NCBI RefSeq assembly: GCF_003334255.1
Contig: NZ_QOWU01000193.1
Length of the DNA: 750 bases
Reading direction: 5' to 3' (one strand)
Origin: Escherichia coli
GTDB lineage: Bacteria; Pseudomonadota; Gammaproteobacteria; Enterobacterales; Enterobacteriaceae
The notes beneath the pieces were generated by a model. It was not told the DNA's origin. It ran no database searches and worked only from the letters and a program-made list of their open reading frames with translations. Shown piece after piece: positions 1-287 of the stretch (positions within the stretch are counted from its first letter, which is position 1; the number at the start of each line of letters is the position of its first letter). The position numbers and the translations under genes were made by a program.

Positions 1-98
1 TAGCCGAAGGGGTCGACAGAACCACAATACGGGCAACACACTGTATTATGAGTAATCGCGTTTCCACAGTCCCTGCACTTCTTTTTGCGTATCACCAT
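1..98 (-). CDS. Candidate small zinc-ribbon protein (CxxC-x9-CCxxC), divergently oriented; C-terminal end at or beyond the left window edge
   Basis: Seen in sequence: reverse-complement ATG at 96-98, preceded on the - strand by AGGAGG (+ coords 104-109, 'cctcct') with a 5-nt spacer; frame open down to position 3 (32 codons: MVIRKKKCRDCGNAITHNTVCCPYCGSVDPFG). The next codon starts TA (positions 1-2) with its third base outside the window, so it is either a stop (giving a 32-aa protein) or Tyr. Four-Cys spacing C8-x2-C11-x9-C21C22-x2-C25 is typical of a zinc ribbon. Short and not verifiable by homology here, so moderate confidence. Confidence 0.45.
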   Translation of the reverse strand, partial: MVIRKKKCRDCGNAITHNTVCCPYCGSVDPFG

Positions 99-268: not shown

Positions 269-287
269 TCCGTATGAACCATACGGA
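269..287. repeat. Perfect inverted repeat, 8-bp arms with 3-nt spacer (TCCGTATG-AAC-CATACGGA), overlapping the Shine-Dalgarno of the + CDS; candidate operator or RBS-occluding hairpin
   Basis: Seen in sequence: 269-276 'tccgtatg' is the exact reverse complement of 280-287 'catacgga'; symmetry ends at 268/288. The right arm covers G285-G286-A287 of the GGAG Shine-Dalgarno; the element ends 9 nt before ATG 297. Confidence is for the repeat itself, not for any function. Confidence 0.85.

Follow-up and report, generated by a model that had tools for sequence, protein, structure and literature searches.

The window, by which we mean the whole 750-nt stretch of Escherichia coli DNA that was analysed, contains the 5′ part of a YagK/YfjJ gene (hereafter the Gp2 gene) and, immediately before it, a leader with a short palindrome. 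The following features, all on the + strand, are referred to below.

198–245, + strand: long imperfect hairpin followed by CGUA and U6; terminator-like, and present in the E. coli type only.
250–257, + strand: TTTTTTAC motif (T-run), the 5′ edge of the cross-genus leader; a U-rich tract 10 nt 5′ of the stem foot (268).
260–264, + strand: 5′ strand (CGUGG) of a second helix, paired by RNAfold with CCAUG at 295–299.
268–288, + strand: extended nine-pair stem including the U268–G288 wobble, which exists on the + strand only; RNAfold includes this pair.
269–287, + strand: core hairpin palindrome TCCGTATG-AAC-CATACGGA, from an inverted-repeat search and RNA folding.
273–279, + strand: TATGAAC, the hairpin apex; of the sequence motifs in the leader, the one best conserved between genera.
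285–288, + strand: SD (Shine–Dalgarno) GGAG, 8 nt 5′ of the ATG, read from the sequence.
295–299, + strand: 3′ strand (CCAUG) of the second helix, including the start codon AUG (297–299).
297–750, + strand: 5′ part of the YagK/YfjJ (‘inovirus Gp2 family’) gene; the full gene encodes 189 amino acids with a predicted HUH fold.

The first-pass annotation had called the gene Rep-like and the locus an integrated element, and both descriptions held. The gene product matches Pfam YagK_YfjJ_C and, weakly, REP_ORF2-G2P, and its HxH and YxxK motifs are invariant in 130 diverse homologues. A confident AlphaFold model found its best structural matches among HUH nucleases, including pMV158 RepB, parvovirus NS1 and TnpA_REP bound to a REP hairpin; the model shows a predicted HUH-nuclease fold with the catalytic motifs intact. 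A sequence search of the PDB returned nothing. The locus is a CP4-like island, which also encodes HTH (helix-turn-helix) and zinc-ribbon proteins. Genes of the YagK/YfjJ family, which belong to the core of integrative islands, are carried by most E. coli genomes, frequently as several copies, and are spread through many other Proteobacteria, forming 1392 clusters at 50% identity, and Gp2-like genes are also core in Pseudomonas islands (bioRxiv 10.1101/2024.08.29.610337). A viral-contig scan gave two loci. Our search of the literature on YfjJ, YagK and Gp2 found no work on function, control or substrates. The divergent gene at the other end of the window (1–98, − strand; 8898–9098 of locus L001) is labelled hypothetical, and other genera do not conserve it upstream of Gp2; it encodes a 66-amino-acid protein with a CxxC...CxxC arrangement followed by a hydrophobic tail, a zinc ribbon with a probable membrane anchor.

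The palindrome was found in the sequence exactly as the annotation had described it, with an 8-bp stem and a triloop, an overlap with the SD and a distance of 9 nt to the ATG. Its arms, 269–276 (TCCGTATG) and 280–287 (CATACGGA), are 100% complementary and enclose the 3-nt loop AAC (277–279); the 3′ arm holds the GGA of the SD GGAG, and 9 nt lie between its end (287) and the ATG at 297–299. When the U268–G288 wobble is counted, the extended stem spans the entire GGAG. When the window was shuffled 2000 times with dinucleotides preserved, 6.0% of the shuffles had one or more perfect stems of at least 8 bp with a loop of 3–8 nt, and thus the palindrome alone is just marginally surprising. Two such stems arose in 1.45% of the shuffles, and the window has two (269–287 and 130–148). 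The second is also a perfect 8-bp palindrome with a 3-nt loop, GTTTTTTA-CAT-TAAAAAAC; it lies in the divergent intergenic region and bears the same T-run/AC motif on both strands. A terminator reading of the 269–287 palindrome found no support, as the stem is followed by GAUUUAACC and a terminator scan detected none. A covariance-model search against Rfam gave no match in the window at E ≤ 10, and the leaders of seven loci gave none at the gathering score.

Folding of the 5′ UTR with RNAfold, a check that the first-pass annotation had itself proposed, placed the SD inside a stable stem. The RNA of 255–320 folded at −15.2 kcal/mol (z = −4.05), and none of 200 shuffles was as stable; the palindrome stem alone contributed between −8.9 and −9.9 kcal/mol as RNA. 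The proposal of a translational hairpin was therefore borne out in that the stem includes the SD and is stable as RNA, whereas its extent had been underestimated, since only the 8-bp stem had been seen. The predicted structure was unchanged at 25 °C (−19.2 kcal/mol) and at 42 °C (−13.5 kcal/mol), and an RNA thermometer was rejected because an SD stem that persists at both temperatures is not weak enough. Unpairing the region from −15 to +3 would cost 11.6 kcal/mol in the window compared with a median of 6.2 kcal/mol for 79 control genes (92nd percentile). By the folding model, a structure of approximately −15 kcal/mol should nearly silence the gene, which is a point against the translational reading.

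Conservation was analysed first within the species. Of 5426 complete E. coli genomes, 3394 have the 54-nt leader (246–299), at 6278 places in all, and among the matches listed nearly all copies lie at the 5′ end of a Gp2 gene, a distribution on which we rejected a dispersed palindromic repeat of the REP/BIME kind. Most E. coli copies are more than 95% identical. At the positions left unfixed by the search pattern, one of ten in the arms was variable compared with ten of 19 in the flanks (Fisher p = 0.044). Among distinct E. coli variants, the arms were nearly invariant (one T-to-C singleton), whereas the flanks varied. In 16 distinct E. coli leaders, 99.1% of cells were paired, a level that the shuffle control reached in 25 of 500 trials; the regular expression used to collect these leaders fixed most of both palindrome arms, and the invariance of the main stem among them is therefore partly built in. 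The second helix was not constrained by this expression except for the ATG. It was paired in 100% of cells even though four of its five pairs vary, the changes being C–G/U–G/U–A, G–U/A–U and G–C/G–U. The pair 261–298 is G–U in 14 of the 16 leaders and would be a C–A mismatch on the opposite strand, so that the helix makes sense only for a single-stranded + strand. At 268–288, the 16 leaders have U–G (13), C–G (two) or an unpaired A at 268 (one), the T268C variants having turned the U–G pair into C–G.

In a frequent E. coli variant the loop is longer by five bases (AACGAAAC), with stem and gene intact. This insertion was found in at least seven distinct leaders with intact genes and shifts the spacing between the half-sites from 3 to 8 bp. 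Its tolerance is what would be expected of a hairpin and not of a spaced double-stranded operator. On comparison of the sequences, the conserved unit is a leader of approximately 50 nt (T-run, hairpin, SD and ATG) with a second helix over the start codon, and it is this conservation, rather than the palindromic sequence as such, that lifts the hairpin above chance.

The leader was then followed into other genera. Orthologues with 60–69% protein identity were found in Hafnia, Kosakonia, Klebsiella, Tatumella, Rosenbergiella, Salmonella, Pectobacterium, Serratia, Rouxiella and others, and in approximately 15 other genera they keep an SD-covering hairpin, of which the 3′ arm is the SD, through changes of G–C to A–U and G–U. 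The genes upstream are unrelated between genera, and detectable homology starts a few bases 5′ of the T-run. The layout shared across genera reads TTTTTTAC, 15 nt, TATGAAC, (A)CCGGAG, 8–11 nt and ATG. In the other genera, an outer stem, CxCCGGT/ACCGGAG, spans the SD, and the inner stem and loop are variable. The cells of this outer stem in 15 leaders comprised 87 Watson–Crick, seven G–U, two C–A and nine other combinations; in an alignment of 14 sequences 90.8% were paired, with one compensatory pair (G–C to A–U). The shuffle control for these leaders was reached in 39–47 of 500 trials, and the sequences in both this set and the E. coli set are related. As the shuffle controls were only moderately exceeded, covariation supports the structure and is no proof of it. 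GGAG was present in 13 of the 14 aligned orthologous leaders and AGAG in one; in the Rouxiella orthologue (L136) the stem is weak and the SD degenerate. On its 3′ side the E. coli version is shorter by 6 nt, and this shortening creates the perfect palindrome. That related genes elsewhere retain an SD-covering stem through base changes strengthened the case for an SD-sequestering hairpin made in the annotation.

These comparisons bear on the second suggestion of the annotation, that the palindrome, as DNA, offers a dimeric repressor a symmetric site. A double-stranded operator for a repressor of the island would account for the perfect two-fold symmetry immediately 5′ of the gene, and the HTH and zinc-ribbon proteins of the island would offer candidates to bind it. 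However, the spacing of the half-sites is not conserved, being 3 or 8 bp in E. coli leaders with intact genes, while the SD-covering arms of the other genera lie ~22–23 nt apart and differ in sequence; moreover, the base changes keep pairing, including G–U, and not the sequence of a half-site. We regard an operator of this kind as very improbable.

A more distant leader was seen on a plasmid of Pseudomonas frederiksbergensis (L159), whose Gp2 homologue has 34.5% protein identity. Within the 40 nt 5′ of its ATG, a stem GGTTATGA/TCATAACC encloses the SD and abuts the ATG, and the leader has GGTTATGAA, resembling the TATGAAC apex, in common with the enterobacterial leaders, which could reflect deep leader homology or coincidence.

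To place the window-type leader in the wider family, 16 independent leader classes were compared, including K-12 yfjJ and yagK and plasmid homologues from Salmonella, Citrobacter, Enterobacter, Proteus and Pseudomonas. The opening cost of these 16 classes did not differ significantly from that of the 79 annotated control genes (Mann–Whitney p = 0.23), and ten of the 16 were not significant individually; SD occlusion as a universal trait of the family was thus rejected. Occlusion beyond the upstream-shuffled expectation, in which only the part upstream was shuffled, was found in the other six classes:

window-type leader, p = 0.017;
other-genera-type leader, p = 0.043;
leader of a second E. coli paralogue (D-type), p = 0.003;
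K-12 yagK leader, p = 0.020;
leader of the Pseudomonas plasmid copy, p = 0.003;
leader of the Proteus plasmid copy, p = 0.003.

Fisher's combined p over all 16 classes was 1.2e-4. Several of the occluding leaders have no obvious similarity to each other, indicating that anti-SD pairing recurs across different leader sequences. These results also weigh on the idea that the palindrome is functionless, having arisen by chance or hitch-hiking and appearing conserved only through the recency of the E. coli copies. The 6% of shuffles with such a stem and the close identity of most E. coli copies would agree with it, but the flanks vary where the arms do not, orthologues at 60–69% protein identity retain the SD-covering stem, and different leaders occlude the SD beyond the shuffled expectation; we give this idea hardly any credence.

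Upstream of the leader, the 198–245 hairpin of the E. coli type folded at −28.9 kcal/mol (z = −4.63). Its consensus structure among E. coli copies had three two-sided pair changes, and eight G–U compared with three C–A/A–C cells. A simple terminator scan did not call it because such a scan allows loops of 3–8 nt only; together with its U6 it looks like a putative intrinsic terminator directly upstream of the leader. Downstream, a copy of TTTTTTAC also follows the Gp2 stop codon by ~55 nt (L004, L005 and L007–L011) and is the U-tract of a terminator-like site in L004, with a weaker T-rich tail in L142. With terminator-like sites before and after it, the gene appears to be bracketed by terminators.

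The TTTTTTAC motif, often in the form GTA[T/A]TTTTTTAC[G/A], is far more frequent than chance in these islands. It occurs at 250–257 and 131–138 of the window and at 5875 (+), 7759 (−) and 9952 (+) of L001, and precedes Gp2, AlpA-like and zinc-ribbon genes. The pre-Gp2 copy has no hairpin before it in other genera, and the motif is conserved nonetheless. Its role may be that of a terminator U-tract, a ribosome standby site or both. The distance from TTTTTTAC to TATGAAC is fixed at 15 nt (16 in one case), and the E. coli type and the other genera have different bases within this spacer. Both motifs are thus kept in sequence and spacing beyond structural need, which hints at a sequence-specific partner.

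One such possibility is that TTTTTTAC and TATGAAC, 15 nt apart, are promoter elements or a bipartite protein-binding site. Native transcripts would then start inside or after the hairpin, near position 285, and the full hairpin would form only in transcripts reading through from outside, as in the fold-back inhibition established for IS10. The spacing that stays constant while the intervening bases differ would be explained in this way, as would a cross-genus homology that starts at the T-run, and TATGAA matches four of the six positions of the −10 consensus. However, TATGAA lacks the final T, the best −35-like hexamer (TTTACG/TTTACA) is merely 14 nt away, a sigma-70 consensus scan found no promoter in the window or in two orthologous loci, and the T-run after the gene is the U-tract of a terminator-like site. 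We consider a promoter or bipartite site quite improbable.

Several further candidates around these motifs were discarded. The T-run was not taken as a −10 element TATTTT, given that CATTTT is the reading in most E. coli copies and that the A is missing from several genera. A minus-strand promoter for the divergent gene, TTCATA-16 nt-TAAAAA, scored just eight matches in 12 positions, and different genes lie upstream in different genera. Pairing over a long range between the U-run and GTAAAAAA in GKK codons was dismissed as these codons are not conserved at synonymous sites. The apex itself opens a mini-ORF at 274–294, ATG AAC CAT ACG GAG ATT TAA (MNHTEI*), with its stop 2 nt before ATG297. In many other genera the apex ATG shares the frame of the main ORF, and it was taken as the start by one gene caller (L148, 199 amino acids); in two genera it is GTG. 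An N-terminal extension or leader peptide from this codon found no support, since a stop follows in the window, L005, L136, L138 and L140 and no SD precedes it.

Next, we considered the hairpin as single-stranded DNA, that is, as the recognition or nicking site (origin-like) of the adjacent HUH nuclease, possibly together with TTTTTTAC, in which case the overlap with the SD would be secondary or would serve autoregulation. The hairpins on which HUH enzymes act have a conserved loop or a motif next to them. The pMV158 RepB double-strand origin, the geminivirus/circovirus stem-loop and the REP hairpins bound by TnpA_REP likewise combine a conserved-apex hairpin with an HUH gene next to it, and resemble the present leader in having a short conserved motif at a fixed distance from the hairpin. 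The adjacent protein has a predicted HUH-endonuclease fold with invariant HxH and YxxK; TATGAAC and its fixed distance to TTTTTTAC are conserved in sequence while the stems change; GGTTATGAA recurs before the Pseudomonas homologue, only 34.5% identical; and the + strand also folds as DNA (−7.0 kcal/mol, z = −3.09). On the other hand, the 3′ arm is the SD in every orthologue, at ribosome-binding distance from the ATG, so that in contrast with the known origin hairpins the Gp2-leader hairpin always includes an SD, and the start-codon helix depends on G–U pairs. The gene for a Gp2 protein of 81% identity (L134) is preceded by an unrelated leader that lacks these motifs, whereas a non-nuclease gene, AlpA-like, has a similar one. 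No second copy or termination site was found, nor was an excision junction in 5426 genomes, and the literature search yielded nothing on substrates of the YagK/YfjJ family, for which no nicking, replication or binding is known. A single-stranded DNA site of this kind is, in our judgement, rather unlikely.

A related idea, that the leader marks the end of an IS608-like (IS200/IS605-like) element, arose because TTTTTTAC ends in TTAC, lies ~10 nt before the hairpin and recurs ~700 bp downstream after the gene. It was rejected: homology extends a few bases 5′ of the T-run, the predicted empty-site junction was present in none of the 5426 genomes, and the upstream contexts in E. coli have ~35 nt in common before the T-run, which counts against an element end.

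The leader is also retained in copies from which the Gp2 gene has been deleted. A common derivative (L002, 4001–4115; 14 of 120 metagenome matches) keeps the T-run, palindrome, SD and ATG without the Gp2 ORF; ~48 nt of unrelated sequence follow the ATG and lead into the region normally 3′ of Gp2. In one metagenome contig (L055), an E. coli-type copy lacks the region from the start of the zinc-ribbon gene to the T-run (~95–247) and is kept from TTTTTTAC onwards. An IS1414 insertion (IS256 family; L002, 2673–4020) interrupts the leader after TTTTTTAC and before the palindrome, and has duplicated 9 bp of the target, TACGACATG. An isolated 45-bp copy in NZ_LT599825 was for this reason rejected as an independent module, being the same leader split by IS1414 with the 9-bp duplication.

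The similar leader noted above belongs to an AlpA-like HTH gene of the same E. coli island (L001, 7669–7766, − strand) and is like the Gp2 leader of other genera, with a T-run, CCGG...CCGGAGG, about 10 nt and an ATG. It reads TTTTCATGAC-CACACCGG...CATCCGGAGG before the spacer of ~10 nt and the ATG. Its presence there suggests that the module goes with gene expression and not with the nuclease alone; it may represent an expression cassette shared by the two genes, or what is left after deletion of a Gp2 gene. In other genera (L136, L140 and L142), the gene order is Gp2, AlpA and sometimes a DUF7828/zinc-ribbon gene, with ~150 nt from Gp2 to alpA. The alpA leader has an SD and a short ORF, then a terminator-like CCGGCGTG...CACGCCGG followed by UUUUCUCCC, with repeated GGGAG/CUCCC, and to judge from these elements looks like a leader-peptide attenuator. 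The DNA-binding helix-turn-helix of Pseudomonas aeruginosa AlpA lies at residues 128–142 (PMC9371919). The antiterminator mechanism of that protein was not borrowed for the present islands, where AlpA-family genes encode just 71–77 amino acids. Elsewhere in the island, an Rfam IS102 RNA match (73.4 bits; L001, 3337–3573, − strand) adjoins the Ag43 gene.

Taken together, we give somewhat better than even chances to the reading that the palindrome is the core of a cis-acting 5′ leader hairpin that blocks translation initiation of the YagK/YfjJ HUH-nuclease gene. The structure and its stability, the conservation, the pair-preserving changes and the nature of the gene were established by the analyses above; we infer that the mRNA includes the leader and that its translation is reduced by the hairpin. 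In such a transcript, 268–276 would pair with 280–288 and bury the SD GGAG, and the second helix (260–264/295–299) would bury the AUG. With both buried, the 30S subunit could not bind unless the structure opens, and translation of the nuclease would stay low. The U-rich TTTTTTAC tract before the hairpin might provide a single-stranded ribosome standby site. In E. coli, the terminator-like hairpin and U-run (198–255) just upstream would in addition block read-through transcription, and the gene would be doubly insulated, against read-through transcription and against translation of those transcripts that do read through.

Occlusion of an SD by a hairpin is a textbook mechanism, and the brake proposed here would be of an ordinary kind. 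IS10 and IS50 provide a related case, in which sequence upstream of the ribosome-binding site folds back on that site in the transposase mRNA and leaves outside transcripts untranslated, as is established for IS10. The Gp2 leader resembles them in that sequence upstream of the ribosome-binding site pairs with it. In IS10/IS50, however, the native promoter lies inside the fold-back, so that native transcripts escape, whereas the candidate internal promoter of the Gp2 leader is weak. A third comparison is with translational operators of RNA phages, such as the MS2 replicase operator, a coat-protein-binding hairpin that is likewise small and contains a ribosome-binding site. The conserved apex of the Gp2 leader could be read by a protein in the same manner; this resemblance would explain just the conservation of the TATGAAC apex, and no binding protein is known for the leader.

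The tnpA gene of IS200 has, at the left end of the element, a terminator followed by a stem–loop that sequesters the SD (PMC4513863). The likeness covers several points: a small HUH-family nuclease on a mobile or foreign element, a 5′ UTR inverted repeat that pairs with the SD, a terminator-like hairpin just upstream and a promoter that is weak or undefined. The differences are that YagK/YfjJ is no known transposase and that no element ends or empty sites were found. The stem is also short here, with nine plus five pairs compared with nt 69–138 in IS200; there is no sequence or Rfam similarity and no known antisense RNA, and the Gp2 leader is known from sequence.

The two roles might also be combined, the hairpin with TATGAAC and TTTTTTAC being the single-stranded DNA recognition or nicking site of the nuclease and, in the mRNA, its translational brake. 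We hold this combination to be unlikely; if true, it would provide the first substrate for, and a handle on, the YagK/YfjJ nuclease, and would concern a core gene of the very widespread AlpA-type genomic islands. The region at approximately 246–300 of the window is a short, well-defined sequence for work on expression and nicking. The interest of the leader comes mainly from the gene it is predicted to control, an uncharacterised and very widespread HUH gene. At the level of the leader sequences, our comparison shows that one large YagK/YfjJ subfamily carries a conserved leader predicted to hide its ribosome-binding site, as would fit a potentially harmful DNA-nicking enzyme that is restrained until the island is activated.
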